DNA of 62,601 nucleotides, filler included, from Stramenopiles sp. TOSAG23-3 (Eukaryota), in assembly GCA_900128585.1 (NCBI GenBank). It is 7 parts of 7 records of this genome, joined end to end, with 100 filler letters (N's around TTAATTAATTAA, not from the genome) between each part and the next. Parts side by side here need not be neighbours in the genome. Positions count along the whole stretch, not along the records: positions 53,756 to 62,601 come from LT642978.1; 6 more parts are not named here. The stretch is one strand, 5' to 3'. The notes under the pieces were generated by a model that worked only from the letters and a program-made list of their open reading frames with translations, had not been told where the DNA came from and made no database searches. A program made the translations under genes and the position numbers. Shown piece by piece: positions 3 through 62,601 of this stretch (the stretch's first letter is position 1; the number at the start of each line of letters is the position of its first letter).

Positions 3-2891
3 AGAGGACGAAACAAAGGCTTCCGCGTTCCGGAAAACACGTGGATGAAGGGGGAGCTCATTAGCCTGAATCGGAAACGCCTAGGGGACGAGGACCCCCA
101 TTACTATGGGGCGTTTCCAGCGTCCTGCATTGAGGTGATAAAATTTGAAGTCCCAGTCATGGAAAAGGATGAAGCGGCTGTGTACATACAGGCAATGGCA
201 AGGGGTTACGTATACAGGAAGAAAAGGGCACTGCACTGGGACGCTTCGATACCAATACAGACGTTGGTGCGGGGTTTTTTGGTACGACGTCGTATTTCCA
301 GAGGCCTTCGAGTTCGAGAAGCCGTGGCAAAAGATATGGTCGAAATTGCAAAAGAGGCAACCACGGCTCCTGCAATCTTCGAGTCGGTTTTGCTGCGGAT
401 AGGCTGCGGCCAGGAAAGCTTCCATAAACGAATCCAGTCCAAAGGAAAGGGATTTACGTTCGCAACTGGCGAAACCCCTGTCGTGAAAGACTATAGAGGC
501 CACTTCCATGAAAGTCGGCCGGCCAACAACACTGGGCCAAAGTACCAGACGAAACGTTTGGAGTACGTGATGAGTGGCATGTCCAGCGTGGACATTCTGC
601 GCCACTTTGTGGTAAAGAACAAGGTCACTGAGCGTAAATTGAAATCTGTCATGGCCAACAAGTGCCAAAGAAAGTTTCGTACTGCCGACAGGAAAAGTTG
701 GGCGTATTACTACGATGATATATGGATCGTCGTCAACTGGGTGCTGAACGGCAATCAGATGGGCAGTGTGTTGCCCAAAGAGGACTTTGAAAAAAATATT
801 ATTCCGCGGTTAGATAAAACTATGTCTGGCGCCATTACGCAAGAGAGCTTAATAAAACTCCTCTTCGACGCCGAGGGAGTCGATGAAGAAGTGCCCACCC
901 TGAAGAAAAGCTTGAAGGCTAGCGCCCATGCGCAAAAGATGTGGATAGGCCAGCACCACCCCGACGATCTTGAAATGACAAAAAAGTACGGGGATGTAAA
1001 GTACGGGAACGACTACGAAAAGCAGGTAGTCGACAACATCATGGGTAAATATGGAAAGGGGGTAAAGATGTTGTTCCAGTACGCTTGCAATGCCAATCAC
1101 CACCAAGAGTATGACACCAACATGACGTTCGAGCGGCACAAACGGGCCAGCCAGTCGTGCAGCTGGACAAATGCTCAGAATATGGCGCACGATCTTCGGC
1201 TCGTGGCCCCGCGAACAAGGGTGTACGTTCACTTGGACGAGCTCGGGATGAAGCACCACGCGATTCGGCAGCACGGCCGTGTGTGGAACCAAGATAGCGA
1301 TAGGACTCGCCAACTCCCCCATGCCCAATTCGTTCGCGTCGAGTGGATTGAAGATCGCAGCGTTGTGGGAAGCAGCAGTGTCCCTCGGTTGACAGAGGTC
1401 GGGGCGTTGCCAATAACGATCGATGAAGCGCGCAACATCTTTCGCAAGCGTGTCAAGCGGAAGATGAAGGGCAGGCACTTGGACCAGGTGAATGGCCTGG
1501 TGCGTCCCGAGGAATTGGTTTTGTATTTAATGGATCTTGCTGTAAAAGCGATGCCACGGCTGCGCCGTTGCCCCGACAACGTAGAGCGCGAAATGAGCTC
1601 CCCGGCCGCGAAAGAAGCCTACGATCTCGCATACGAGCACGAGCTGGAGGTGAACGGGGGCTACGAAGATGGCGCAGTGAAAAAGGCAGCTGCGGCGCAA
1701 AAAAGGATTGCCAAAAAACGGGTGGGAGACTTCGTTGCAGCACTGTCTCCGCAAGAGTGTTTGGAGTCGTTGATATGGCACATAAACATTGCTTCGGACG
1801 ATACCGCAGAAATACGGAGGACACTGCAAGCCTTTGGCAAAGGCACATTTGCGTATCCCGTAGGGTTTGGTATGGCGGAAGGCCCACGAGGCCGTGGCAA
1901 CACTCTCGGTGGTCCACTGCAGTACCTTGGCAAGAAGACCTACCATCAAGTGGCGAAACGGACCGTGACGAAAAACTCGCCCTCCGCGTGGATCAAGCGG
2001 GCAATCGTGAACATGGCCATGGAGTCGGGGACTGATCTAAAGTACATTTTTCAAAAGTTTGATTTGGATCGGAACGGAACACTGGAACCCCACGAAATTT
2101 GGCACCATTTTCAACAAATTTTGCCGGAAGGGCTTGGACCTAGAGAATTCAATAAGATCATACTAGCTGAGCTCTATGGTATCGACTCCGCAGAAAAGAG
2201 GCATAAATTGTCGGGGGGCGATCTTGCCCGACTGCGAGTCGACTACGAAGCCTTTGAGGATTTTGTCATGAGCTCCAAGTCTCTCACACGCACCCAAGGG
2301 GAAGTCAGTGTTGCGGCGGACAGGGGACGCCCGAAACGGACTAGAAAACAGCGAAAACAGGACATGCTACCGCCTGGACCGTACTCTCAGTCTGTGGTAA
2401 TGAAAGATGACACGATGTCCATGTCTCGATCCAGTTACCAGCAATACCAGCGATCGCAGCGAGAAAAGATTAAAAAGAAGGCCAAAATGCCAGATCGAGC
2501 GGGTCGTCAACCATCCCACACCATACAGCCGAGCCTGTCGTTGCAGACTTCAAATGCCGCACAATACAACCCTGAACCAGGGGTTCAGCAAGGAGGCAAT
2601 CCTCTCGCTCAGAATTCCCAACAGTTTAGCCTGCTGCCTGGATGGTTTGCGGCCACTGATCCAAAGACCAACATGGTGTATTACTACAACCCAGGGAGCG
2701 GAGAACGAACTTGGGATTGGAGAAAGGCCATATCTGCCGCGCCACCTGGAAAGACCCTGTACACGCCCCGGCAGACAGCTCGGAGAGATGTTCGAATGCG
2801 AAATGAGGGGCCCCAGCCTCCAGCAGGCAATAGAACCAGTGTGCACGAATCCCCCAGGGTCGTTCGGGGCAACGTTGTTGATCCCAGGTGA
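3..2891 (+). CDS. 5'-truncated multidomain protein: end of an SH3-like domain, IQ motifs, EF-hands, WW domain
   Basis: The frame is open from the contig edge (WMKGEL...GAFPASCIEVI, SH3-like). IQAMARG and IQTLVRG are IQ motifs, DLDRNGTLEPHEI is an EF loop, and LPGWFAATDPKTNMVYYYNPGSGERTW is a WW domain. Confidence 0.75.
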   Translation, partial: RGRNKGFRVPENTWMKGELISLNRKRLGDEDPHYYGAFPASCIEVIKFEVPVMEKDEAAVYIQAMARGYVYRKKRALHWDASIPIQTLVRGFLVRRRISRGLRVREAVAKDMVEIAKEATTAPAIFESVLLRIGCGQESFHKRIQSKGKGFTFATGETPVVKDYRGHFHESRPANNTGPKYQTKRLEYVMSGMSSVDILRHFVVKNKVTERKLKSVMANKCQRKFRTADRKSWAYYYDDIWIVVNWVLNGNQMGSVLPKEDFEKNIIPRLDKTMSGAITQESLIKLLFDAEGVDEEVPTLKKSLKASAHAQKMWIGQHHPDDLEMTKKYGDVKYGNDYEKQVVDNIMGKYGKGVKMLFQYACNANHHQEYDTNMTFERHKRASQSCSWTNAQNMAHDLRLVAPRTRVYVHLDELGMKHHAIRQHGRVWNQDSDRTRQLPHAQFVRVEWIEDRSVVGSSSVPRLTEVGALPITIDEARNIFRKRVKRKMKGRHLDQVNGLVRPEELVLYLMDLAVKAMPRLRRCPDNVEREMSSPAAKEAYDLAYEHELEVNGGYEDGAVKKAAAAQKRIAKKRVGDFVAALSPQECLESLIWHINIASDDTAEIRRTLQAFGKGTFAYPVGFGMAEGPRGRGNTLGGPLQYLGKKTYHQVAKRTVTKNSPSAWIKRAIVNMAMESGTDLKYIFQKFDLDRNGTLEPHEIWHHFQQILPEGLGPREFNKIILAELYGIDSAEKRHKLSGGDLARLRVDYEAFEDFVMSSKSLTRTQGEVSVAADRGRPKRTRKQRKQDMLPPGPYSQSVVMKDDTMSMSRSSYQQYQRSQREKIKKKAKMPDRAGRQPSHTIQPSLSLQTSNAAQYNPEPGVQQGGNPLAQNSQQFSLLPGWFAATDPKTNMVYYYNPGSGERTWDWRKAISAAPPGKTLYTPRQTARRDVRMRNEGPQPPAGNRTSVHESPRVVRGNVVDPR

Positions 2892-2944
2892 GAACAAAAA
2901 ACGTAAAAAACATGTGCGTCTTCTCTTTCGTCATGTAACATAAA

Positions 2945-2967
2945 AACAAGAAAATTGGCTGTTATTT
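2945..2967 (+). promoter_or_regulatory. Conserved post-stop motif AACAAGAAAATTGGCTGTTATTT (copy 1 of 8)
   Basis: Lies about 54 nt after the stop at 2891. Near-identical copies occur on other contigs. Confidence 0.6.
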
Positions 2968-3314
2968 AAGTATAAATATACCACTTTTTTCTGATGCTGT
3001 ACTCCTCTTACTACTACTATTACTATCCGATTACAAATGAAGTTCACAAATAATAGATAGTCGGTCTGCAGCTGCAGCATGCAGCAGAGTTCGTTCTCTA
3101 AATGTGAAATAAATAGGTATTTTAATATCTCGGTATATTAAGTAGCCAATTCGGTGGTGCGGTACGGTACCGGTACGGTACCTGGTACCGGTACCGAACC
3201 CGGTCGGCGTCTTGTTCCTACTTTGCAATTTGTGCGTGACTGAAATTCTTTCTGTACAAAGCCGTTTTCTTTCAGTTGAAAAGAGCGCGGCACGTTTCCC
3301 CAAAGCAGGCTCCG

Positions 3315-3866
3315 ATGTCGTCTGTTGAAGAATTCACCGTGTCCGTTTCGTCTTCTGAAGATGCAGAGGACGCTGGTGTAGTCGGCACGTTGGTGGAAAT
3401 TGTAAACATGGCTTATAGCAGGGGGGAAGAGGGGATGTGGAAAGGTAACGCTAAGAGAACAACGTTGGGCGAAATGGCAGCTCACCTCAAAAGAGGTGAA
3501 ATTCTAATTGCGCGCTCGTCGGTAGAAGTTGCCGGAAGCATTTTTGTAAACCCATTTTTTGAAGAAAATATCGGCGAGCTCGGCATGCTGTGCGTTGCCG
3601 AAAAGTTTCTCCGGAGGGGTTTAGGGAAAATGTTAGTCCATGCTGCAGAAGTCCACTGCAAATCAGTTGCAAGCTGCAAACACATGAGACTTGAGCTTTT
3701 GACTCCGGCGGCGTACATTCACCCCGTAAAAGCCTGGCTGGACAAATGGTACACCAGTATGGGGTACGTGAAAGGTACCCCAGAAAATTTTGATTTGAGT
3801 TACCCCCGAATTTCACCGCTGCTCAAGGTAGAGTGTGTGTTTACGGCGTATTTAAAGACGGTTTAG
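3315..3866 (+). CDS. GNAT-family N-acetyltransferase
   Basis: ELGMLCVAEKFLRRGLGKMLV is acetyl-CoA motif A, followed by WYTSMGY. First ATG is at 3315. Confidence 0.85.
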   Translation: MSSVEEFTVSVSSSEDAEDAGVVGTLVEIVNMAYSRGEEGMWKGNAKRTTLGEMAAHLKRGEILIARSSVEVAGSIFVNPFFEENIGELGMLCVAEKFLRRGLGKMLVHAAEVHCKSVASCKHMRLELLTPAAYIHPVKAWLDKWYTSMGYVKGTPENFDLSYPRISPLLKVECVFTAYLKTV

Positions 3867-4139
3867 ATTGTTACATTAAAAAGAAGAAAAGAAAACAGTT
3901 AAATCAGAGAGATATCGGAGGATTTTCATAAAACACGCACGGTTATTCCATTTAAAAAGTCGTAAAATTTGCATTAAAATTAAATAAAACAGCCAATAAT
4001 TTTTTGTTATATGGATTTTGTTAACTGAATTATTGGTATCCAAGGTTTTTTTCTCTTTTCTTAAAAGAGCATTCAACGAGGAAAATTATTTCGTACTCGT
4101 AAAATATAAATTTGCCCTCTCTCCCTCTCGTGCAGTCTC

Positions 4140-6494
4140 TTACCAAGCGATCGCCTTGCCGACGATGTAGTGCTGCCGTAAGTTGAACTGTGCAGGGGAT
4201 ATGATAGGGGCATCCTCTTTAGAAAGAGACTTTGTAAACGAGTTGGACGATTTTCCAACTGATGGTAACGAGCGGGACAATTTTCCACCTTTAAACGACC
4301 TGGATAATTTTCCACCTTTAAACGACCTGGACAAATTTCCAGCAATGTCCTTACAAAAGGATGCAGGATCTGGCGTGATAAGACGGTTCTCTAGGCATTC
4401 CTGGCAGACTTGAACGATTTCGTCCCTAGTCATTTCCTTGTGCAGCACCGGGTGAAAAGTTAGGCAAACATTTAAAAAGTTAACCATGTTGCTGCCTGAA
4501 ACGGAGTATGATTGTGGCCCGCGCTCACGCTTTTCATTTTTCCTCGAAATCCGCTGCCCATTGGTCCTGCCAAATACAAGCAGAACAAGACCGTACAACT
4601 GCGCCGCCCTGCGTTCATGTTGGTCTTCAATCAGCCCAATTAAATTTGCCAGCATCTCATTGGCACTAGGCCGATCTGCCGGATTCTCGGCCCACCCCTT
4701 TTGAAAAATCGCCGTCATCCCCGATGGGATCTCGGTCGGTGTTGGCAATCTCCCGCCTTCGGCGACAAACTTTAACACCTCCCCCACTCGCAACCCAGAA
4801 AAGGGGGTAGACAAAGTTAACAATTCCCAGAGGACGACCGTTAGGGAGAACACGTCGCAGGCTTCATTACCAGAGGTCTCTCGTCGGAGCACTTCCGGTG
4901 CGGCCCACTGAACAGTGCCACAAAAGCCTTTCTCGGCGCTATCCCCTTCGCTGTAAGAGGCAAGGTCCATGTCGGTCAGTTTAATAGTTACAGGTGCCAC
5001 CAAGTTTGTGCTATGGGACACAGTTCGCTTGAACAAAAAATTTGGAGATTTAATGTCACGGTGAACAATTGGCAAGTGACCTCTGCTGTCGTGAACGAAA
5101 TCCAAAGATCGAGCGCATTGTATCGCGAGAGAGAGAAACCAAGGAGTAAAGTGGCCGACTGGGGCCACCTGGCGTGTGCCGGGGTTCGACGTGTACCCGG
5201 CCTGTCTCTCCCGAATAAGGTCCATCAGGTTACCGTCGCAGAGCTCCATAACATGGCAGAGGGATGGGGGGGCAACTGAGACCCCTTTTAACTGGACAAT
5301 GTTCGGGTGCTCGCCCAGCATCCCAAGAATAGAAGCCTCCTGGAAGAACGTCTGTACAGTGGTCCGCGTGATGTCAGGCATAAAAAGCAACTTTATCGCA
5401 ACCTCCTCGTCGATCCATTTCCCGTGAAACACCCTGGCAGTCCCCCCCATTCCAATTATTTTGGACGCGGGAAGGGATAGCTCTGCGTGGTATATCGTAG
5501 TAACAAACTCTTCATCCAGGGTTTCGAGGCCCTTGTTTAGTGTCCCTATAAGGCTGGTCCTTAACTGCAGGCCTTTCAGGGGGATACGAATATCCCCCGA
5601 CATGGTACGCCCCGGCCCCTGCGAACAACAGTTTAAAGTGCACCCCGCATCCTCATCGTCGTCTTGAGGTATCCAGTATGTTGTGTCCACCAAAAAAGCG
5701 TTGTACAATGCCAGCGGCATAACAATCGCTCTTATAATACGAATTACGCCAACAGCCTGTGTTTTGCCGTGGTAGTGCATCAGTCCCGACGCGCATTCGG
5801 CAATCTCGAAGACCATGTATGGGGTCCCAAAGACGTCAAACGAAACCCTTTTCTTACGAAAGCGTGAACAAAGTTTGAACCTTGCTGCGCCCAAGAGCAG
5901 AGTCCTGATCCCGGCTAAATACGCACTAGCAATATCATGAGTGTCGGCCCATTCTAACCATTCAGGCACCTCAACAACAAGAATACTAATGATAAATATA
6001 CAAATGCTTTTTTTTAAGGCACTATAAGTTGACTTTGGACCGATACCAGCCTGCAAGAAAACGAAGAATGCAAAATCCCACGCCAGCAACTGTAGGAAAT
6101 TAAGAACTTCCCTAACACAAATCTCGACAACGGGTATGATATGTACCTGGGAAAATAGTACATAACAAACTAATTGGATGAAATAGATAGCCAATAAAAA
6201 CCTCAGAACGTAAATATATAAGGGAAGAAGGTGGGATGTTGCGACAGAAGCGTTCAAATACCGTTCTATCCCATCCATAGACATTCGCGTCGAACGAACA
6301 ACCACCCCCCTCGCCCATAATAACACGTTAATCCCCAACTGAACAACGAATATAGCCACGACGGAGATAAAAAAGAATGTATTCTTTTCATCTTTATAAT
6401 TATGATTCCCACCCATGGCAAAACGAACAAAACAATAGACGACGAAAATTAAAATGCCAAGGCTAAAATTGGGGTCGCAATAGTGCTTTCTCAA
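4140..6494 (-). CDS. Multi-pass (7TM-like) membrane protein fused to a TKL kinase and a DEP-like C-terminal domain; start uncertain
   Basis: About 7 hydrophobic segments, then GMGGTARV, VAIK, HRDIKSPN, DMD in place of DFG, and APE. The C-terminal SGSNMVNFL...TRDEIVQVCQECLENRLI resembles DEP. First in-frame ATG is at 6416. Confidence 0.8.
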   Translation of the reverse strand: MRKHYCDPNFSLGILIFVVYCFVRFAMGGNHNYKDEKNTFFFISVVAIFVVQLGINVLLWARGVVVRSTRMSMDGIERYLNASVATSHLLPLYIYVLRFLLAIYFIQLVCYVLFSQVHIIPVVEICVREVLNFLQLLAWDFAFFVFLQAGIGPKSTYSALKKSICIFIISILVVEVPEWLEWADTHDIASAYLAGIRTLLLGAARFKLCSRFRKKRVSFDVFGTPYMVFEIAECASGLMHYHGKTQAVGVIRIIRAIVMPLALYNAFLVDTTYWIPQDDDEDAGCTLNCCSQGPGRTMSGDIRIPLKGLQLRTSLIGTLNKGLETLDEEFVTTIYHAELSLPASKIIGMGGTARVFHGKWIDEEVAIKLLFMPDITRTTVQTFFQEASILGMLGEHPNIVQLKGVSVAPPSLCHVMELCDGNLMDLIRERQAGYTSNPGTRQVAPVGHFTPWFLSLAIQCARSLDFVHDSRGHLPIVHRDIKSPNFLFKRTVSHSTNLVAPVTIKLTDMDLASYSEGDSAEKGFCGTVQWAAPEVLRRETSGNEACDVFSLTVVLWELLTLSTPFSGLRVGEVLKFVAEGGRLPTPTEIPSGMTAIFQKGWAENPADRPSANEMLANLIGLIEDQHERRAAQLYGLVLLVFGRTNGQRISRKNEKRERGPQSYSVSGSNMVNFLNVCLTFHPVLHKEMTRDEIVQVCQECLENRLITPDPASFCKDIAGNLSRSFKGGKLSRSFKGGKLSRSLPSVGKSSNSFTKSLSKEDAPIISPAQFNLRQHYIVGKAIAW
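4279..4340. repeat. 27-bp in-frame tandem duplication (SRSFKGGKL x2)
   Basis: aattttccacctttaaacgacctgga is repeated directly. Confidence 0.9.
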
Positions 6495-8869: not shown

Positions 8870-8969
8870 NNNNNNNNNNNNNNNNNNNNNNNNNNNNNNN
8901 NNNNNNNNNNNNNTTAATTAATTAANNNNNNNNNNNNNNNNNNNNNNNNNNNNNNNNNNNNNNNNNNNN
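8870..8969. other. Artificial contig linker
   Basis: N44-TTAATTAATTAA-N44, giving stops in all six frames. Confidence 0.98.
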
Positions 8970-9588: not shown

Positions 9589-9689
9589 NNNNNNNNNNNN
9601 NNNNNNNNNNNNNNNNNNNNNNNNNNNNNNNNNNNNNNNNNNNNNNNNNNNNNNNNNNNNNNNNNNNNNNNNNNNNNNNNNNNNNNNNN
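9589..9689. other. Scaffold gap (Ns without linker)
   Basis: Run of about 100 N with no TTAATTAATTAA. Confidence 0.9.
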
Positions 9690-17837: not shown

Positions 17838-17937
17838 NNNNNNNNNNNNNNNNNNNNNNNNNNNNNNNNNNNNNNNNNNNNTTAATTAATTAANNNNNNN
17901 NNNNNNNNNNNNNNNNNNNNNNNNNNNNNNNNNNNNN
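17838..17937. other. Artificial contig linker
   Basis: N44-TTAATTAATTAA-N44. Confidence 0.98.
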
Positions 17938-26797: not shown

Positions 26798-26897
26798 NNN
26801 NNNNNNNNNNNNNNNNNNNNNNNNNNNNNNNNNNNNNNNNNTTAATTAATTAANNNNNNNNNNNNNNNNNNNNNNNNNNNNNNNNNNNNNNNNNNNN
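26798..26897. other. Artificial contig linker
   Basis: N44-TTAATTAATTAA-N44. Confidence 0.98.
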
Positions 26898-35753: not shown

Positions 35754-35853
35754 NNNNNNNNNNNNNNNNNNNNNNNNNNNNNNNNNNNNNNNNNNNNTTA
35801 ATTAATTAANNNNNNNNNNNNNNNNNNNNNNNNNNNNNNNNNNNNNNNNNNNN
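35754..35853. other. Artificial contig linker
   Basis: N44-TTAATTAATTAA-N44. Confidence 0.98.
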
Positions 35854-44706: not shown

Positions 44707-44806
44707 NNNNNNNNNNNNNNNNNNNNNNNNNNNNNNNNNNNNNNNNNNNNTTAATTAATTAANNNNNNNNNNNNNNNNNNNNNNNNNNNNNNNNNNNNNN
44801 NNNNNN
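44707..44806. other. Artificial contig linker
   Basis: N44-TTAATTAATTAA-N44. Confidence 0.98.
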
Positions 44807-53655: not shown

Positions 53656-53755
53656 NNNNNNNNNNNNNNNNNNNNNNNNNNNNNNNNNNNNNNNNNNNNT
53701 TAATTAATTAANNNNNNNNNNNNNNNNNNNNNNNNNNNNNNNNNNNNNNNNNNNN
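53656..53755. other. Artificial contig linker
   Basis: N44-TTAATTAATTAA-N44. Confidence 0.98.
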
Positions 53756-53756
53756 T

Positions 53757-54098
53757 GTAGGGAATTGGATAATTGGTTTACCATTAGGCTTTGCATTTGC
53801 ATTCTCCAAAGGACTCTGGCATAGTATTCAGCTAGCAAGTATTACTGGGTATGAAACAGAAAATAAAACGGGAGGATTACTTGGTTTATGGTGGGGTCTT
53901 ATTATTGGATATGCTTTTGTTGGTATTGGTTTTATTGTTATTTTTCTACAAATGAATTGGAAAAAAATAGCTCGTAAAGTAAAGGAATTGAAAATGAATG
54001 AAGAATGCCTTTCTTGTCGTACAGATGATATATCTAGTCATGAAACAAAAAATCTTACTGAGATTAATATAGAACTATCAGATTTTGTAATACAATAG
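53757..54098 (+). CDS. C-terminal fragment of a MATE-family transporter; missed by the ORF track
   Basis: Manual translation gives NWIIGLPLGFAFAF...GLLGLWWGLIIG...MNWKK, matching MATE TM11-12. Confidence 0.8.
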   Translation, partial: VGNWIIGLPLGFAFAFSKGLWHSIQLASITGYETENKTGGLLGLWWGLIIGYAFVGIGFIVIFLQMNWKKIARKVKELKMNEECLSCRTDDISSHETKNLTEINIELSDFVIQ

Positions 54099-54367
54099 AG
54101 ATTAATTCGCCACAACATTAATTATAAAGTATTTTGTATTTTGTGTATTTTGTATTTGTATTTGAATAAATGTTGTTGCCGGGTACCCGTTTTTCGTTCA
54201 GTGCAAAAACAAATTCACAACTGTTGGAACACCGTTTATATACAGAATATCGTAGTAGTATATAGTTGGACATACTAACTAAGTACTTACCAAAGCTAAA
54301 TTATAACGGTATTCGCTATATTGAATATAAACCAGAGAGATAAGAACTATTCAAATATTACAGTATA

Positions 54368-55483
54368 ATGGAATGCCCTCTCCCGCCTTTAAAGTTTGAT
54401 TCTCAGCCAATGAGTGTTTCCTTTGCACCAAATAAAGATTTAGTTGCTGCATCTCTAATTACTGGTGAAGTTAAAGTCTGTAGTTACAGCAGTGAGAGTT
54501 GCAAAGAGCAATTATCATTTAATCAACATACTGGTGCTTGTCGTAGTCTAGCATATTCTGATGATGGGTCTATAATTTTTACTGGTTCATCCGATTGTTC
54601 CGTCGCTGCAACTGACGCAAGTACTGGAAAATGTGTTTGGCGAAAGGAAAAGGCCCACGATTCTGCTATCAATATAGTTTTTTCTTTACCTGAAAATCAT
54701 CAAAATACTCTTGCTACTGGCGATGAAAATGGATGCGTGAAAATATGGGACAATCGCACAAGAGAATGTACACATACGTCTACTATATCAACAGATTATA
54801 TATCAGATATGTGTTATGGTGCAGCTGCAAAGAATCAACTCCTTTACACTTCTGGTGATGGATGCTTGAGTGTTTTTAACTTAAAGAAAGGAAAGGTAGA
54901 ATACCGTTCTGATGATCAGGAAGATGAATTGCTCTCGTTGCAACTTATCAAAAATGGTAAAAAGGTCGTTTGTGGTACTCAAGGTGGAGTTCTTGTAATA
55001 TTTAGCTATGGTGATTGGTCAGATAGATCTGATGGTTTTCCAGGTCACCCACAGTCAATAGAAGCATTATTAAAGATTGATGAGGACACACTTATCACTG
55101 GAAGCAGTGATGGAATTATTCGTGCCGTCAGTGTACAACCAAATAGATTAATTGGAGTGGTTGGTGCTCATGATGATTTTCCTGTAGAACAATTGGAGTT
55201 TTCTCGTGATCAACGCACTATTGCTAGCTGCTCTCATGATAATATTATTAAACTTTGGGATGTTTCTATGTTTTTTGATAAAGAAAGTGATGAAGAAGAT
55301 GATACTATAGTAGCTTCAACAGAAGTAGTCAACAAATCAGCTGATTCTGATTTTGATTCTGATTCTGATTCTGATGCTGGTGTAGGAAAGGGTCGTAAAC
55401 GCATGATGAAAAAGAAACTGAAACCAAAAGACGCAAAGAAACTTCGACCAAATTCCATGGCAGGTTTTTTTGCTGATTTATAA
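54368..55483 (+). CDS. WDR55: WD40 repeat protein 55-like
   Basis: SDDQEDELLS, KNGKKVVCGTQGGVL, FPGHPQSI and TGSSDGIIRAV, with a C-terminal FFADL. Confidence 0.88.
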   Translation: MECPLPPLKFDSQPMSVSFAPNKDLVAASLITGEVKVCSYSSESCKEQLSFNQHTGACRSLAYSDDGSIIFTGSSDCSVAATDASTGKCVWRKEKAHDSAINIVFSLPENHQNTLATGDENGCVKIWDNRTRECTHTSTISTDYISDMCYGAAAKNQLLYTSGDGCLSVFNLKKGKVEYRSDDQEDELLSLQLIKNGKKVVCGTQGGVLVIFSYGDWSDRSDGFPGHPQSIEALLKIDEDTLITGSSDGIIRAVSVQPNRLIGVVGAHDDFPVEQLEFSRDQRTIASCSHDNIIKLWDVSMFFDKESDEEDDTIVASTEVVNKSADSDFDSDSDSDAGVGKGRKRMMKKKLKPKDAKKLRPNSMAGFFADL

Positions 55484-55554
55484 TGGCAAAAAGGTAGTTA
55501 TACATAAACAAAATATCAAATAAATTCTTTTTATATTTATATCCGCATATTTTG

Positions 55555-56889
55555 TTATAAAGTTTGTAATGTTTCAACAAGTCTAACAAATATACTTGAA
55601 CCAATAGGTATTATATTATCATTGAAATCATATTTAGGATGATGTAATGGATATGATGGTTTTTTTTTACTGAAAGATGGACATTCAAATAGTGTTGTAG
55701 CTTCATTTTCTTCTTCATTAGAACCAATCCAAATATAACAACCAGGTCTTTCGTTCAGCATAAATGCAAAATCTTCCGAGGCTGAAGTCGGTGTTGGACT
55801 GATCACTTGTTTAGCACCAACAACAGATGTAGCCACTTTGCATGCATTAATAGAAGATTCTTTATCATTGATAGTTGCAGGATTTCCATTGAGAACTTTT
55901 ATTTTTACATTAGTCCCAAATGAATCAGATATTCCTTTTGAAATATCTTTCATACGTTGAATGAGTAAATTACGAGTTTCTGGTTTGAAACATCGAATAG
56001 TTCCACGAAACTCAACTCTATCAGGAATAATATTAAAAGATCCATCACTACTATCTAATGCTGGTGCATTAAATTGTGTGACAGAAAGTACTGCACCATC
56101 ATCAGGATCAGCATTACGTGAAACAATTGTTTGTAATGCAGTAACAATATGACAGGCAGAAATTAAAGGATCTACTGCAAGATTCGGTATTGCTGCATGT
56201 GAAGACTCGCCACTAACGGAAACAATAAAATTATCTTCTGAACCCATTAAAGGACCAGATTTAATACCAACATGACCAAAAGGAAGTGTTGGCCAATTAT
56301 GGATACCATATATTTGGTCACATGGGAATCTATCAAAAAGATTATCTTTCAACATTAGAGGTGCTCCACTCCCATCTTCAGGAGACATATCCGCTGGCCA
56401 ATGTACACCTTCTTCGTTTGGTTGGAATATAAAGTTAACTGTCCCACGAAAGTTTCGAGTTTCTGCAAGATACTTTGCTGCGCCTAATAACATTGTTGTG
56501 TGACCATCGTGTCCACAAGCATGGTGCACACCTGGGTTTGAAGATATATAGGATGTACCAGTCTCTTCAGAAATGGGCAATGCATCCATATCTGCGCGGA
56601 GACCTATGGAAGAAGTACATTCTTTTCGACCACGTAACGTACCGACAACACCAGTACGTCCAATACCTGATGTAACTTCAATGCCCCATGATTTCAACTT
56701 ACTAGCGACAAGAGATGCAGTATTGTATTCTTCAAAACCAAGTTCTGGCTCACGGTGAAGACCTTGTCGTATCTCTTTAAATTCGTCCTGTTGAATCACT
56801 ATACCTTCCACCAAACCTGATAAATGAGCACAGCGACCACGTAAAAAGCGACTAGATATACGATTACTAAACGACAAAAGAGAAAACAT
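55555..56889 (-). CDS. M20 amidohydrolase (hippurate-hydrolase-like) with a putative mitochondrial presequence
   Basis: HREPELGFEE, LRADMDALP, HACGHDGH, FQPNEEG, SEDF and LHHPKYDFND. The N-terminus is Ser/Arg-rich and lacks acidic residues. Confidence 0.92.
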   Translation of the reverse strand: MFSLLSFSNRISSRFLRGRCAHLSGLVEGIVIQQDEFKEIRQGLHREPELGFEEYNTASLVASKLKSWGIEVTSGIGRTGVVGTLRGRKECTSSIGLRADMDALPISEETGTSYISSNPGVHHACGHDGHTTMLLGAAKYLAETRNFRGTVNFIFQPNEEGVHWPADMSPEDGSGAPLMLKDNLFDRFPCDQIYGIHNWPTLPFGHVGIKSGPLMGSEDNFIVSVSGESSHAAIPNLAVDPLISACHIVTALQTIVSRNADPDDGAVLSVTQFNAPALDSSDGSFNIIPDRVEFRGTIRCFKPETRNLLIQRMKDISKGISDSFGTNVKIKVLNGNPATINDKESSINACKVATSVVGAKQVISPTPTSASEDFAFMLNERPGCYIWIGSNEEENEATTLFECPSFSKKKPSYPLHHPKYDFNDNIIPIGSSIFVRLVETLQTL

Positions 56890-57305
56890 CCCAACCTAAA
56901 TGTAAGAAAAAATAAATATCTGGAGTTACCGAAGGATAACAATTATACGTCCTTTCTGAAAATACATTTCACACCGTGTCGTGTGTGATGTTGAGCCGCT
57001 TGAGTAAAAGTCTATAAGAAAACAAAATGAAACTTTATTATCTGTCCGTGGGTGTGTGGTGTGATACTTTTTCAAAGTTTTTTGGTCACTTGTGACTGGT
57101 CAATATTGAATTGATGGCCAAAAACATCAAAAAATGACAGCAAGATAAGAAAATCCAATCAAAAAAATCAAAAGTTAGGAGGTGGCACTGGTGTTTGGTC
57201 AGAAACTCAGAAACTCAGAGTGTGTTTGTTCGTCATTCAGAATAATAATATTATCAATTGACATAGCTGTGTCCAATTCCGTAATAATCATAATACATAT
57301 TCACG

Positions 57306-58246
57306 ATGGATCAAAAGAATTTAGAAATTTGGGAAGATGCTTCCATTAAGTCTACTCCAAAAATTCGTCGACGTTCGAAACGCTGTCTTGTTGATGTCAA
57401 AAATACACGCGGTGAAGATAAGAAAGGTATGAAGAGTTTGAAAAAGCAACGCAAAAATGAAATGGCTATCATGAATGCAGATAAACTGGAACGCATGCCA
57501 CTGACAGATACATCAAATCCATTATGGCTGTCACCTTTGACACGCGAACCTACAAATAACTCTTCCAGATCAAAAACTGTTCACTCTCTTCCAAAAGAAA
57601 GAGTCGGTCTTTCCAACGAACTACACACAAAACGTTTTTTGAATGTTCCAACAACGAAAACAAATGAACATGTGCCATATGTGGCTGTACATGTTGAAAA
57701 AACACATCGTGTGATATCTAAAACGCATAATTTCCCACCTCCTATGCATAAAAAGACGCATAATTTCCCACCTCCTATGCATAAAAAAACGCATAATTTC
57801 CCACCTCCTATGCATAAAAAAAAGTGTAGTGAAACACAGACTTATACACTAGTTGATAAAACTTCAAGTGCTGATGATGTACACACAGTTGTAGAGACAA
57901 GAAATACTAGTAAAATGTGTGAATCAAGATCAACATTTACTCCACCAATGTATGTTTTATATGAATTTCTAATTTAATTTTTTTTTCATACGAAATTTCG
58001 TACCTAACGATTTTTTTTTGAAATATTTTTCCAAAATACATGTGGACGTTTAAAAGTCGAATAAATACGAGGCCTCGATCGTATGCTCGTGGGGAATCTG
58101 GTTGGATTCCAAGCAAATTTGAAAAAGAAATGTTGACATCAAGTGAGTCAAAAATCGAAACTTCTGCAAGCAAAATAGCTCAGTCGTTAGATTTTAAAGT
58201 CAACTATACTATTGGAATTCCATCTATAATATGTGTAGTAAGTTAA
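57306..58246 (+). CDS. Hypothetical protein; 2 exons (57306-57949, 58042-58246), 282 aa
   Basis: Removing the 92-nt element joins ORFs 57306-57977 and 58040-58246 in frame (FTPPM|WTFKSR). Confidence 0.6.
57720..57821. repeat. 33-bp coding tandem repeat x3 (KTHNFPPPMHK)
   Basis: Seen directly. Confidence 0.95.
57950..58041 (+). mobile_element. Introner-like element / non-canonical intron, copy 1 (GT...AT, or equivalently AT...AC at 57948-58039)
   Basis: AT|GTATGTTTT...TACGAAATTTCGTA (perfect palindrome)-CCTAAC...polyT...AAAATAC|AT. Similar along its length to 61374-61464. Confidence 0.65.
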
Positions 58247-58289
58247 GTATGATAGTTTGTAATGATAACTTTATTTGTGTTTGTAATTA

Positions 58290-58409
58290 TAATTATATTT
58301 GTGTCTGATAATTATAATTATATTTGTGTCTGATAATCATGTTTGTGTCTGATAATTATATTTGTGTCTGATAATTATATTTGTGTCTGATAATTATATT
58401 TGTGTCTGA
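58290..58409. repeat. 19-bp tandem repeat, about 6 copies (TAATTATATTTGTGTCTGA), spanning the hydrolase stop codon
   Basis: Seen directly. Confidence 0.92.
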
Positions 58410-60364
58410 GAAGCTTTAATGATATTTGCTATAGTCTCTGAAGAGTAAATAAAATCACCATGTATACTATTGGGTCTCCAAACAACTTTTACTATCGATG
58501 ACAAATCTTCATTTGACTTATTTTTTATTCTACTCTTGTTTTTATATCCATCTTGTAAATATTCTCGAACATCAGCAGAAGGAACAATATTATCATCTCC
58601 ACCAAGAAAAACTGTTGTTGTTGATGATTTTGTAATTTGTTCATTCATACAATTTGACACAACATTTTTTTGTCTTTTTTGTCTTTTTTGTCTCTCATTA
58701 CCGTTTACTACAGAGTATTGTCTCTGATGTATTTCATAAAGATCCTCTAGAAATAAAACATTCTCAAACCAATCAAATTTATGGGACAAAATAGTTGCTA
58801 ATCGTTTTTCAGTTGTAAAAAAATAATGTGAAAAATATTCATATGTATTTCGAGGTTGTCTAAAAAGTACATTGATACAAACATTGTGATGATACAGTAG
58901 AAAACAGACAGGATCAATAAATACAGCTCGACAAATTCTTTCTGGTTTTGCTTTGATTAACCAGGACATAGGTATTGAACCAAATGAGTGGCCTATTGCA
59001 GATATTTTTTGATTATCATGACCATGTTTCTCAAGCATTGTCAAAACAGCAGACACTAAAGCAGCAGGAGGTAATGCATCACCTTCATCATCATTAGACA
59101 ATCGTAATGAAATCGATGAATTTTCCACTAGAAATACATCTCTTTCAACAACTCCATTATTTACTACATGTAACCCTTTGATAAGTTTTGTATAGATAGA
59201 AAATCCTATACCAAGACCATGAAAGAATATTGCTGGAGAAATTTTTATCTCATTCTTTTCAATATTGTTTTGTGTTTCAGTTGTACCAGCTTTTCTGTAC
59301 CAATAAATCATTTCAAATTCTACATTTGATACATTTTGTACAGCTGTACTTTTTATATCGGGAAGAATAGGAATAGATATCTTAACAGTTTCACGAGTAT
59401 AACCAAGCATTAATTGAAATATCATAGGCTCAATTACATATTGCATCATAAGATGAGAAAAACCATATAAAAATAAAGGTCGAGGTAAAGAATGTATAGC
59501 TTCTATACCATGTCGTATTGGACGTGAATATTTAAGAGGTGAACATGATTTTACTTGAGTTCGTTTATCATTTGTCATTGCTGAAATGATTTGATTATTC
59601 GCAATAGTCTCTGTATTGCAAAACAAGTGTTGTTTGGTCTCTTCAACACTACCAAAATCGATAGAACCAATATTTTCACTACCATTTGCAATACACTCAA
59701 TATCATCTACTACTTTTGATATCGTATTCTGTAATACACTGTCATGTACACAATGGATTCCATTTCTTGAATTACTTCGCCAATCAATTCGTATTTGGAA
59801 CAAAGTCCATGCTATAAATGATTCTATCCCAGAACGTGTAAGGCAGTCATATGATTTTCCTCCAAACCAACCTTCTAACCAAGATCTCATCTTTACAGGT
59901 GTTCCAACTGAAGAAAGCATCTTTTTCCAATATTGCATACTAACACTATATGGAAAACGTGATAATGATGAAAATCTACGAACACCTTTTGTAACATTTT
60001 TGTCCATCAAAGTGTCGTTCAGTTTTCGTTTCCACACCCAACGCTGATACACGAGGTAAAATATACACTCCAGTAAACTAAAACATTTAATGAAGGATGT
60101 AATCCCACTCGGCCATAGATTTTTGAATACATTACGCCGTGATATATTGGTTGTTTTAAATTTATATTTCTTCAACCATAAAACTAATTTGCGGACCCAA
60201 TAGAATGTCGAGAGTGGACCAACACTCTGTAAAATAACAATGACCGATTTCAATACAAAACAAGCAACAGTAGAAGATGACGTGGTTGAAATATTCTTAT
60301 GAATTCCATTATTTCTTTTAGTTACAGGAGACTCAACTCTTGCTCGATCCATAGGTGTCTGCAT
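58394..60364 (-). CDS. Alpha/beta hydrolase-fold protein
   Basis: FFHGLGIG, nucleophile elbow GHSFGS, FIDPVCF, GGDDNIV and a C-terminal HG. Confidence 0.88.
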   Translation of the reverse strand: MQTPMDRARVESPVTKRNNGIHKNISTTSSSTVACFVLKSVIVILQSVGPLSTFYWVRKLVLWLKKYKFKTTNISRRNVFKNLWPSGITSFIKCFSLLECIFYLVYQRWVWKRKLNDTLMDKNVTKGVRRFSSLSRFPYSVSMQYWKKMLSSVGTPVKMRSWLEGWFGGKSYDCLTRSGIESFIAWTLFQIRIDWRSNSRNGIHCVHDSVLQNTISKVVDDIECIANGSENIGSIDFGSVEETKQHLFCNTETIANNQIISAMTNDKRTQVKSCSPLKYSRPIRHGIEAIHSLPRPLFLYGFSHLMMQYVIEPMIFQLMLGYTRETVKISIPILPDIKSTAVQNVSNVEFEMIYWYRKAGTTETQNNIEKNEIKISPAIFFHGLGIGFSIYTKLIKGLHVVNNGVVERDVFLVENSSISLRLSNDDEGDALPPAALVSAVLTMLEKHGHDNQKISAIGHSFGSIPMSWLIKAKPERICRAVFIDPVCFLLYHHNVCINVLFRQPRNTYEYFSHYFFTTEKRLATILSHKFDWFENVLFLEDLYEIHQRQYSVVNGNERQKRQKRQKNVVSNCMNEQITKSSTTTVFLGGDDNIVPSADVREYLQDGYKNKSRIKNKSNEDLSSIVKVVWRPNSIHGDFIYSSETIANIIKASQTQI

Positions 60365-60706
60365 ACTGTTACGTTGATTACTTGTATGATCCACACACCC
60401 GTAGCTTCGAAAACTAGTAGAAGGTAGAAATAGAGGAGTCTCTGTTTTTCAAGTCAGTAAGTCGTACACACAGAAATAATAGTCGTCGTGTAGTAGTCAG
60501 TTGAGAAATTCGATTTTTCGAAACAAAATTGAAAAAATTGTGTTTTTCGTGCGCGTGCAACTTTTTTTAACGGTTGTGAAACGGTTGATCCAATATGTGT
60601 ATATATGGGTGATACTAACTAGTATTTATTGGTATTTTTCTATTCATCAGGGAAATCTTTGAAAGGTTTCGAATTGCGTTTCTACCGGTTCAACTTTCTT
60701 AGAAGC

Positions 60707-62234
60707 ATGAACCGCTATAAGGTTACAAAAAAACTTGGGGATGGCGCGTATGGTTCAGTTCTGAAAGCGGTGAATCATCAGACAGGCGAAGTTGTGGCTA
60801 TTAAAAAAATGAAGAAAAAGTTCTATACATGGGAAGAATGTATGCAATTACGGGAAGTAAAATCTCTTAAAAAATTAAACCATCCTAATATAATCAAACT
60901 AAAAGAAGTAATTCGTGAAAATGATGAGTTATTTTTTGTTTTCGAGTTCATGGAAGATAACTTGTACCAATATGCTAAATCGCGCGATAAGCATTTTCCT
61001 GAGTCTCATATACGGAGTATAATCTACCAAGTACTACAGGGATTAGCTTTTATGCACAAGCATGGTTTTTTTCATCGTGATGTAAAACCTGAAAATCTAT
61101 TAATTAGAGGAGAAACCTGTAAAATTGGTGACTATGGTCTGGCTCGAGAAATTAGATCTCGTCCTCCATTCACAGAATATGTTTCTACACGCTGGTATAG
61201 AGCTCCTGAAGTATTACTACGATCTACTACATATAATTCACCTATTGATCAATGGGCATGTGGTTGTATTCTGGCAGAATTATTTACGTTACGTCCCTTA
61301 TTTCCTGGAACTAGTGAATCTGACCAACTTTATAAGATATGTTCAGTATTTGGATCTCCAACAGAAAAGTCTTGTATGTTTTCAAAATTGAATTTCAAAT
61401 TTTTTTTTTGTACCAAATGTTGTACCTAACATCTTTTTTTTTTTAATATTTTTTCACAATACTTGGTCTGAAGGAATGCAACTAGCTGCAAAAATGAACT
61501 TTCGTTTCCCTCAATTTGTAGCAACTGATTTATCAACAATAATTCCTAATGCCTCACCTGAAGCAATTCAATTAATTGAAGATTTACTTCAGTTGAATCC
61601 AAGTAAAAGACCTTCAGCAAGTGATGCCTTGCAATACCCTTTTTTTATGATGTCAGTAAAAATATCTCGTCCGTTGTTACAAAGTGGAGAGAAGAATCTA
61701 GAAGCAATAAACTCACAATTACTTGATGAAAATAACGATACAATGGAAACCGTAGTAGGACAATGTGAAATAGATAGTAGTATCCGAAATAAAAATGTTA
61801 GTGATAAAAAAAAGATCAATGATAAAAAAATGGAAAAAACAGATAAAAATCTACAAAATAGTTTTGGAAATGATGAAAAAATGAAAAAAAAAGATAAAAA
61901 TCTACAAAATAGTTTTGGAAATGATGATGATTCTTTTAGTCATATTTTTGATGATTGTGATGAGGATGTAAATGCAAGCAGTAATTTTGGAGTTAAATCA
62001 AATGATTCTTATAGTTTTGGTGAATTAAAAGGATCTGCTTTAACAACTACATCAAGTATTAAATCTAGTTCTAAAGACTCATTTAGTTTTGAGAGAAGAA
62101 AAAGTAGTTTCGCCTCAGTTGGATTAAATTCATTTCATAACACTAAGCAAACAAGTGTTGGAACTAGTAAAAATACTTTTGGTTCACTTCAAACAAAATC
62201 ACTAGATAAACAAGGGTTTGGACGACACAGATAG
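60707..62234 (+). CDS. MAK/ICK (RCK-family) kinase; 2 exons (60707-61373, 61465-62234), 478 aa
   Basis: [43 protein letters not shown] and [15 protein letters not shown]. The joined junction reads [24 protein letters not shown]. Confidence 0.9.
61374..61464 (+). mobile_element. Introner-like element / non-canonical intron, copy 2 (GT...TT)
   Basis: TT|GTATGTTTT...GTACCAAATGTTGTACCTAAC...polyT...ACAATAC|TT. Exact removal of 91 nt restores the conserved Trp codon. Confidence 0.72.
61818..61925. repeat. 51-bp in-frame tandem duplication ([11 protein letters not shown] x2)
   Basis: Seen directly. Confidence 0.9.
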
Positions 62235-62415
62235 TATTAATAATAAAATGAATGCCGAAAAAAATATAGTCAATAAAGTAATTTATCAAGTTTTTCAATT
62301 TTGTAGACTTTTGTTATGATATCCACCATGAATTACAAAAGATTCGCTTCATACTGGTCAAATAACTGAATTACCAAAAAGCATCATCTAAATTCCTTCG
62401 GAGACTGATTCAACT

Positions 62416-62601
62416 CTATGCAGACATATCCATTCCACTTTCAACTTGTGGTGCAATGTTTCTAACCGTCTTTGAAATCACTGTTGTCACGCCGCTTTGA
62501 ATACTGAACTTACTTGGTCTATGAACATTAGCGCGTAGCTTGGAGACATCATTTGGCTTTTCGCCTCCTCTGAAGTACTCTTTAGTACCATTACGCCTTA
62601 A
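62416..62601 (-). CDS. C-terminal fragment of an unknown protein
   Basis: Frame open from the window end: LRRNGTKEYFRGG...ESGMDMSA*. Confidence 0.45.
   Translation of the reverse strand, partial: LRRNGTKEYFRGGEKPNDVSKLRANVHRPSKFSIQSGVTTVISKTVRNIAPQVESGMDMSA

Follow-up and report, generated by a model that had tools for sequence, protein, structure and literature searches.

The closest described counterpart of the insertion analyzed here is the IE1 family of Micromonas pusilla, a short non-autonomous element that generates a duplication of 3 nucleotides (nt), is present in genes in multiple copies, and itself provides the 5' splice site, with the 3' boundary located in the duplication (review PMC11282704, citing Huff et al. 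2016). All these features recur in an element of about 88 nt that interrupts a protein kinase gene of the MAK/ICK type in an uncultured marine protist, Stramenopiles sp. TOSAG23-3 (assembly GCA_900128585.1). The gene lies near the end of the analyzed stretch of 62,601 nt (hereafter the window), in the part that comes from LT642978.1. In IE1, the duplication supplies the 3' AG and splicing has been demonstrated, whereas here the duplicated triplets are TTG and ATG, there is no AG, and splicing is what we infer. The insertion anatomy, the existence of a family of such elements, the intactness of the conserved gene around the insertion and the correctness of the genomic letters are all shown by the data; on this basis, we tentatively propose that the element is a young intron of transposon origin that could be removed exactly, in a manner independent of AG.

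Other systems show part of the same architecture. The introner elements of Amoebophrya have non-GT-AG ends, carry direct repeats of 3-5 nt over their borders, apparently originated from miniature inverted-repeat transposable elements, and are removed exactly, as judged by RNA sequencing; they form a hairpin of inverted repeats of 8-20 nt and have no clear terminal signature, and no U1 small nuclear RNA (snRNA) was detected in that lineage (PMC7789003). The present element resembles them in its marine protist host, in its repeated occurrence, in the 3-nt repeats that overlap its borders and in the ambiguous, non-GT-AG character of these borders, but differs in that its inverted repeat spans 4 nt, in the presence of a U2-type 5' site and branch motif, in its stramenopile-looking host and in being known from DNA sequence. 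In Polarella and Symbiodinium, the element and the duplicated target each contribute to the splice sites of introner-like elements (bioRxiv 10.1101/2020.10.14.339549). Some of the classes resemble the present element in their 3-4-nt duplications and in cuts that span the border between element and duplication; however, all classes there end in AG and it is the 5' site that varies (GT, GC or GA), whereas the present element combines a canonical 5' site with an odd 3' end. Transposon-derived introns with repeat-marked non-GT-AG borders and exact removal are further described in Fritillaria borealis, where they are mostly AG-AC or AG-AT, and in euglenids, where they have no polypyrimidine tract and rely on pairing of their ends (PMC11282704). 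In contrast to both, the present element has retained GTATGT together with its branch motif and T tracts, and has almost no terminal inverted repeat. A search of the available literature on introners with target-site duplications and non-canonical introns in stramenopiles, MAST-3 included, found no such elements described in this group. The architecture is that of an introner, i.e., a transposon-derived intron, set apart by the missing 3' AG in combination with a textbook 5' site and branch.

The kinase gene and its insertion

Protein searches point to a MAK/ICK-type kinase as the product of the host gene, the closest named relatives being MAK/ICK kinases rather than CDK or MAPK. Its first exon covers positions 1-210 of the 263 positions of the Pfam Pkinase profile (E 1e-66); a second frame opens within the gap and, on translation, reads from WSEG... 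onward to the TAG at 62232-34, and this second exon covers profile positions 227-263 (22.9 bits, under the cut-off). The catalytic domain is 67-82% identical to proteins named MAK by their sources, including a Phytophthora CMGC/RCK/MAK protein (82%), Acrasis MAK (68%) and vertebrate MAK (67%), and stramenopiles provide the closest unnamed relatives as well as most of the named ones. The closest solved structures are those of CDK2, with far weaker scores (197 bits) than the MAK relatives. When aligned with 11 homologs, exon 1 is 74-82% identical to 10 of them (the figure for the eleventh was absent from the output), and the kinase is colinear with all 11 as far as the C-terminal FGRH motif, which, like the W-x-x-G-x-x-L-A-x-x-MNFRFPQ motif, is common to the kinase and its homologs. 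The T-D-Y motif in the activation loop is a feature of MAK/ICK (RCK) kinases, of which LF4 of Chlamydomonas is an example; the loop encoded at 61170-61185 on the plus strand has T-E-Y instead, versus T-D-Y in all 11 aligned homologs. The host kinase is thus like the MAK/ICK (RCK) kinases in catalytic-domain identity and in the W-x-x-G and FGRH motifs, and unlike them in the T-E-Y and in a lineage-specific tail. Within this tail, a unit of ~15 residues occurs twice in tandem at 61830-61930 on the plus strand.

The two exons are separated by 91 nt that have to be absent from the mRNA if the conserved protein is to be made. Removal of exactly these 91 nt (61374-61464) yields an open frame of 478 codons for a MAK/ICK-type kinase of 478 amino acids, in which the end of exon 1 (...PTEKS) and the start of exon 2 fall on neighboring alignment columns, without a gap, in 11 of the 11 homologs. 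The W-x-x-G-x-x-L-A-x-x-MNF-x-FPQ segment that follows the alpha-G region is encoded, at 61464-61511, only upon this removal, and the W, G, L and A of its WSEGMQLA stretch are at least 90% conserved in the alignment. An initial examination of the DNA made without database searches (the sequence-only reading) had claimed that both exons are otherwise intact, which the homologs bear out, and that W-x-E-G-x-x-L-A-x-x-MNFRFP is conserved in MAK/ICK kinases. The letters on which that reading was built are likewise as described, with a GTATGT donor at 61374 and, within 61374-61520, AG dinucleotides only at 61472-3 and 61484-5. Removal of 100 nt, up to the first of these, creates a TGA at codon 223, and removal of 112 nt, up to the second, keeps the frame and exchanges WSEGMQLA for one Ser in a product of 471 amino acids. 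With no AG in 61374-61471, an AG end that gives a functional product is lacking for a U2-type GT-AG intron. Two other possible donors, the GT at 61346 and that at 61369, were rejected, given that with either AG they lead to lengths that, by our arithmetic, break the frame.

The same examination held that only a join of 61373 to 61465 would do. This stands insofar as only the 91-nt removal restores the kinase, but it does not single out a cut: CTTG is present twice, at 61371-74 and 61462-65, and therefore five placements of the cuts (CT..TA, TT..AC, TG..CT, GT..TT and TA..TG) give the same product. 'GT-TT' is a chosen placement that keeps the canonical GT, not an observation.

The 91 nt very probably arose by insertion and consist of a mobile element of ~88 nt plus one copy of a 3-nt target duplication, TTG. 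Direct repeats of 3 nt flank each of the two copies of the element that we found in the window (TTG/TTG around the MAK copy, where the repeat is extended to 4 nt by chance, and ATG/ATG around the other), and the variable first letter of the repeat agrees within each copy. Such a 3-nt repeat bracketing each copy is the target-site-duplication signature of a small non-autonomous DNA element. This origin bears directly on what the junction can tell, because removal of a duplication-flanked element together with one repeat restores the ancestral frame by construction, spliced or not; the junction alone is therefore no evidence of GT-TT splicing. The protein-restoring join marks the landing site of the element, in the Trp codon of the W-x-x-G motif, and not a cut by the spliceosome. 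Thus, where the sequence-only reading had considered the junction to be the strongest evidence for a GT-TT intron, the boundaries proved real, but an insertion scar accounts for the same restoration without splicing.

The sequence at both ends of the insertion was compared with contigs of independent origin. Contigs placed on 60600-62300 came from one DNA run (X2, a 2024 seawater metagenome) and three RNA runs (X8, X10 and X12), of 18 runs listed with part of the gene. At the 3' end, a contig of the DNA run (X2 record 10) spans 61444-61772 with a lone difference from the window at 61539, and at the 5' end, a contig of an RNA run (X8 record 13) spans 61253-61407 with a lone difference at 61354. 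These independent contigs agree with the window letters at both ends, and therefore an assembly error is largely ruled out; the missing AG in genomic reads that could have undone the initial claim was not seen. The idea that an assembly or sequencing error lost an AG or altered the length of a T run is accordingly hardly credible, even though the source resembles small amplified-DNA runs (6-18 million letters) and the segment includes T10 and T11 runs. The matching contigs come from another year and sample kind and cover 61253-61407 (save 61354) and 61444-61538; the same non-AG architecture is found in the second copy; and, because the 91 nt contain a stop codon in all three frames, a miscounted T run cannot explain the segment, nor can any insertion or deletion in such a run yield a homolog-colinear coding sequence.

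Excision from DNA rather than RNA, comparable to that of the internal eliminated sequences of ciliates, would suit a short, AT-rich and repeat-bounded segment that interrupts open reading frames (ORFs) and whose exact excision restores the frame. However, none of the X2 DNA contigs has 61373 joined to 61465, and the RNA-run contig contains the element. Furthermore, the strand-specific splice signals of the element are sense-oriented in 2 of 2 copies, and homologs put the gene among stramenopiles, not ciliates. We give this explanation next to no credence. An apparent joint of 60894 to 61389 in X2 was disregarded, as one of its sides is only 21 nt long.

Copies of the element in the window and in seawater

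A second copy of the element, inserted in an orphan ORF, was located by searching for GTA[TA]GT with a CTAAC-type motif downstream. The two copies share, in the same order and with the same spacing, GTATGTTTT, TGAATTTC, a T run, GTACCTAAC, a second T run, AATATTTTT and the AATAC end. Their alignment shows 66 identical columns out of 96, and the global alignment score of 47 compares with 6.4 +/- 5.05 for dinucleotide shuffles, none of which (0 of 1000) scored as high. The core is 88-89 nt long across the two copies, and the distance from branch to end is 35 nt in the kinase copy and 34 nt in the second copy. The splice signals (GTATGTTTT, GTACCTAAC and the T tracts) are the best-conserved parts of copies that are otherwise ~31% diverged. 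The two copies share one piece and one strand of the window, both (2 of 2) being in sense orientation inside ORFs, and the second, too, has no AG at the end required by exact removal.

Exact removal reopens the frame in both copies, in the orphan ORF for 68 further codons; we estimate that a downstream frame of this length would be open by chance with a probability of ~0.005 at this base composition. The frame of the orphan ORF is open to its TAA with exact removal as well as with use of the first (58055-6) or the second (58070-1) downstream AG. This ORF belongs to no Pfam family and has no relatives among 1.84 billion representatives. In its product, an 11-residue unit (KTHNFPPPMHK) occurs three times in tandem, and the tail at the end is hydrophobic. 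No third copy of the element was detected in the window with a profile made from the two; both copies are located on its AT-rich last piece, and none on the other 53 kb.

In nature, the element family is multi-copy. Of the DNA run X2, 335 contigs were placed, and the depth reached 726-4854 only across 61341-61511, versus 4.5-4.9 alongside. Thirteen of these contigs start to match at 61373, and the sequences before this position are mutually unlike (agreement 0.44). The T before GTATGT is therefore a trait of the family, which implies that the duplicated target is normally not AG. The insertion in the kinase gene itself is not confined to the window: X8 shows its 5' end and X2 its 3' end. Data of three years (2015, 2022 and 2024) contain it, and an empty site (the gene without the insertion) was not seen in the placed contigs. 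The ratio of element depth to exon depth, ~1000 in the DNA run X2 versus ~60-100 in the RNA run X8, might hint at removal from RNA but was not used, given that contig depth summed across organisms is uninterpretable.

Searches of wider collections yielded no further members. A metagenome pattern scan returned 31 loci, none of which resembles the element by eye. One of these (L002) has a similar AATAC-TTG end, with a 5' flank and body unlike those of the element. Seven others (L003, L009, L013, L019, L020, L023 and L026) have in common one near-identical stretch of ~125 nt, which has no relation to the element and must belong to a widespread organism of some kind. A scan of a viral collection gave six loci with match lengths of 63 or 79 nt; these lengths and two of the contig sizes are those of L005 and L001, neither of which belongs to the family.

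Proposed exact removal and the competing explanations

We consider it plausible, short of probable, that the kinase gene carries a young transposon-born intron and that the element and one repeat are removed exactly and independently of an AG; GT-TT splicing as such is a hypothesis to which we attach a similar or slightly lower degree of confidence. Under this proposal, a non-autonomous element of ~88 nt (61375-61462) would have inserted into the Trp codon of the W-x-x-G motif and duplicated the 3-nt TTG. The 5' TATGT of the element, joined to the G of the duplicated target, forms GTATGT, and the element supplies, on the sense strand, GUAUGU, the UACCUAAC branch motif and U tracts. With its 5' site, branch motif and T tracts all in the sense direction, the element should be engaged by a U2-type spliceosome, and we take the fact that these signals are the best conserved between the copies as evidence of its handling as a U2-type intron (introner). 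The cell would then remove exactly the element and one repeat, with a second splicing step that has no need of AG and a 3' cut that might be set either by its spacing from the branch (34-35 nt in the two copies) or by the conserved AATAC end. The duplicated target being TTG, not AGG, there is no AG where the 3' cut must fall, and the family-wide T before GTATGT suggests that a target-supplied AG would not be available to the other copies either. By analogy, the transposon-derived introns that are removed exactly in other organisms, despite repeat-defined ends other than GT-AG, speak in the same direction. That splicing of the 91 nt occurs at all, and the position of its 3' cut, are what we infer from this combination of features.

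The signals of the element are U2-like rather than U12-like, as initially asserted, with GTATGT at 61374-79 and TACCTAAC followed by T11. The minor spliceosome had nevertheless been put forward as an alternative, on account of its tolerance of unusual terminal dinucleotides. Several non-AG ends are indeed accepted by minor introns, and TACCTAAC is one letter away from either branch consensus. However, the 5' consensus of U12-type introns is [AG]TATCCTT and their branch site lies ~10-15 nt upstream of the 3' end, whereas the 5' end here is GTATGTTT and the branch A is 35 nt away from the required 3' end (61464). Rfam found no match in the window, with minor snRNAs among the families absent, a result that has little weight for 62 kb. 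The U12-type alternative thus finds no support and is very improbable.

Ordinary splicing of an element of the same transposon origin, from GTATGT and the branch motif to a downstream exonic AG, is a more serious competitor, although we regard it as rather unlikely. Use of the first AG (AAG, 61471-73), with its TGA at codon 223, would result in a truncated or degraded product. Use of the second (TAG, 61483-85) would give the 471-residue kinase, in which case the 'coding' WSEGMQLA would be a recent piece of exon swallowed by the new intron and too young for decay; indeed, 24 nt are too short for decay to be visible. The use of AG looks normal in the assembly, to judge by ORF-supported candidate introns of the form GTAAGT...CTAAC...YAG on other pieces (e.g., 26237->26171 and 24287->24198, minus strand). 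Furthermore, neither of the first two AGs downstream of each copy shifts the frame, and the first one after the second copy leads to an open frame with a loss of only 5 codons.

On the other side, the first AG of the MAK copy makes a stop, and a productive mRNA would therefore need the second. This second AG is behind the first, its G being 56 nt from the branch A (61429), versus 44 nt for the G of the first AG and 35 nt for 61464, and its use costs the W, G, L and A that are conserved at 90% or more. Nor is TGA a sense codon here: the five ORFs of the last piece contain no in-frame TGA in ~2,270 codons (our estimate) and encode Trp by TGG throughout, and the reading of TGA as Trp at the first-AG junction was rejected on this ground. 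Moreover, if the family depended on exonic AGs met at random, two of every three insertions would shift the frame, yet both copies seen (2 of 2) are located in ORFs.

It is also conceivable, albeit distinctly unlikely, that the insertion is not removed, or is removed unproductively, and that MAK and perhaps the orphan ORF were inactivated recently, the intact exons being a mark of youth. The strains differ by only a few letters per kb, hence little time would have been available for decay, and the sole RNA-run contig that crosses the donor is unspliced. We estimate that the piece that carries both copies is ~76% ORF and that two random insertions would both lie in sense orientation within ORFs in ~14% of cases. 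The public gene model P0056 fails here as well: compared with 60707-61426 of the window, it is block-wise identical, continues past the donor into the element and leaves out two conserved segments of the kinase. Being broken at the element, this model shows that existing annotation fails at this point. Its terminal residues, read by eye, seem to correspond to the opposite strand near 60640-60720.

Several observations argue against inactivation. The insertion is present in the data of 2015, 2022 and 2024, with no empty allele seen, and the differences between the window and the contigs of other strains in the kinase domain consist of 3 synonymous changes and one conservative change, Ile to Leu (five differences in the tail comprise four replacements and one silent change). 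In addition, GTATGTTTT, GTACCTAAC and the T tracts are conserved best in copies that have otherwise diverged, and a null allele of a conserved flagellar kinase would be unlikely to reach high frequency in a very large marine population.

Exact removal itself has to be weighed against a number of unfavorable results. No spliced junction (61373 to 61465, 61474 or 61486) is present in the contigs of X8, X10, X12 or X2, such that the search for junction reads proposed by the sequence-only reading ended with no junction contig of any kind in 3 of 3 RNA runs. The single RNA-run contig across the donor, X8 record 13, continues for 34 nt into the element, at a depth of 5.2 that is no lower than that of the X8 exon contigs (2.4-3.7). 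RNA coverage is thin, with 14 of 30 bins covered in X8 and nothing at 61512-61625, and no cover near the junction in X10 and X12, and carry-over of DNA is possible; the result of the RNA runs weighs only mildly against splicing. Searches of protein databases found no spliced-transcript product of this organism, and no protein of it other than the faulty P0056. The strong canonical 5' site, the branch motif and the T tract of the element predict an ordinary, AG-seeking spliceosome, and in-frame AGs are available downstream of both copies. The terminal inverted repeats are clean for 4 nt only (GTAT/ATAC), with imperfect pairing beyond, and predicted folds are no better than those of shuffles (z +0.37 to -1.41), so that a cut guided by structure is without support. 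The base-by-base reading, finally, covered two copies only.

The window and the wider meaning of the element

The window is composed of seven pieces of ~8.85 kb that are joined by artificial spacers of the form N44-TTAATTAATTAA-N44 (Table 1); apparent ORFs that run across the spacers are artefacts. There is also a separate run of 101 N at 9589-9689. As the spacers divide the pieces, only the last piece is linked to the kinase gene. The G+C content of third codon positions is 0.14-0.26 in the ORFs of this piece and mostly 0.4-0.8 in those of the other six, with some lower values among overlapping, likely non-coding ORFs. The stop codons of the last-piece ORFs are TAA (4) and TAG (1), and TGA terminates 6 of 13 long ORFs on the other pieces. 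The seven pieces may represent different genome compartments or different organisms within the assembly. Upstream of the kinase start codon, a putative ordinary GT-AG intron lies in the 5' leader; if it is real, one canonical and one non-AG intron would coexist in the same gene.

Table 1. Positions of the element, its host genes and other features along the 62,601-nt window
Feature	Coordinates	Strand	Remarks
MAK/ICK-type kinase exon 1	60707..61373	+	ATG at 60707; 222 codons and the first base of codon 223
Exon 2	61465..62234	+	Begins with the final two bases of the Trp codon; stop codon TAG at 62232-34
91 nt to be absent from mRNA for the conserved protein	61374..61464	+	Element and one repeat copy
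Mobile-element core	61375..61462	+	88 nt, TATGT...AATAC
5' copy of direct repeat TTG	61372..61374	+	Its G is the G of GTATGT
3' copy of direct repeat TTG	61463..61465	+	Confirmed by X2 record 10
GTATGT, 5' splice-site consensus	61374..61379	+	Identical in both element copies
T10 tract	61400..61409	+	
TACCTAAC, branch-site-like motif	61423..61430	+	Branch A at 61429; identical in both copies
T11 tract downstream of branch motif	61434..61444	+	
First downstream AG, context AAG	61472..61473	+	TGA at codon 223 if used
Second downstream AG, context TAG	61484..61485	+	In frame; WSEGMQLA replaced by one Ser if used
Second element copy and one repeat	57950..58041	+	92 nt; ATG at 57948-50 and 58040-42; core 57951-58039
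Orphan ORF hosting the second copy	57306..58246	+	No Pfam family
Putative ordinary GT-AG intron in 5' leader	60457..60651	+	GTAAGT ... TACTAAC ... CAG
Last of seven pieces	53756..62601	.	Sole DNA physically linked to the kinase gene
Spacers	8870-8969, 17838-17937, 26798-26897, 35754-35853, 44707-44806, 53656-53755		Six places

Somewhat more tentatively than for the single gene, we envisage a stramenopile-like marine protist that harbors a family of introners of ~90 nt, possibly of the order of a thousand copies, each with a U2-type 5' site, branch and U tract and with a 3' end formed by AATAC and a non-AG duplication, and that removes them exactly. If the element is indeed removed in this manner, the near-universal 3' AG rule would be relaxed in this lineage, with the canonical 5' site and branch kept, and the requirements of the two splicing steps would be separated in a natural system. 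A transposon of this kind could give rise to introns nearly anywhere, without being restricted to AG|G. If true, this would amount to an AG-independent second step and, beyond dinoflagellates, tunicates and euglenozoans, to a new and independent origin of non-canonical introns gained through transposons. For annotation, the consequence is that every copy-bearing gene will be mis-called by gene finders bound to GT-AG. If, on the other hand, the element is not removed, the locus would cleanly record how, in an ocean protist that is uncultured, an active element knocks out or shortens a conserved flagellar kinase.

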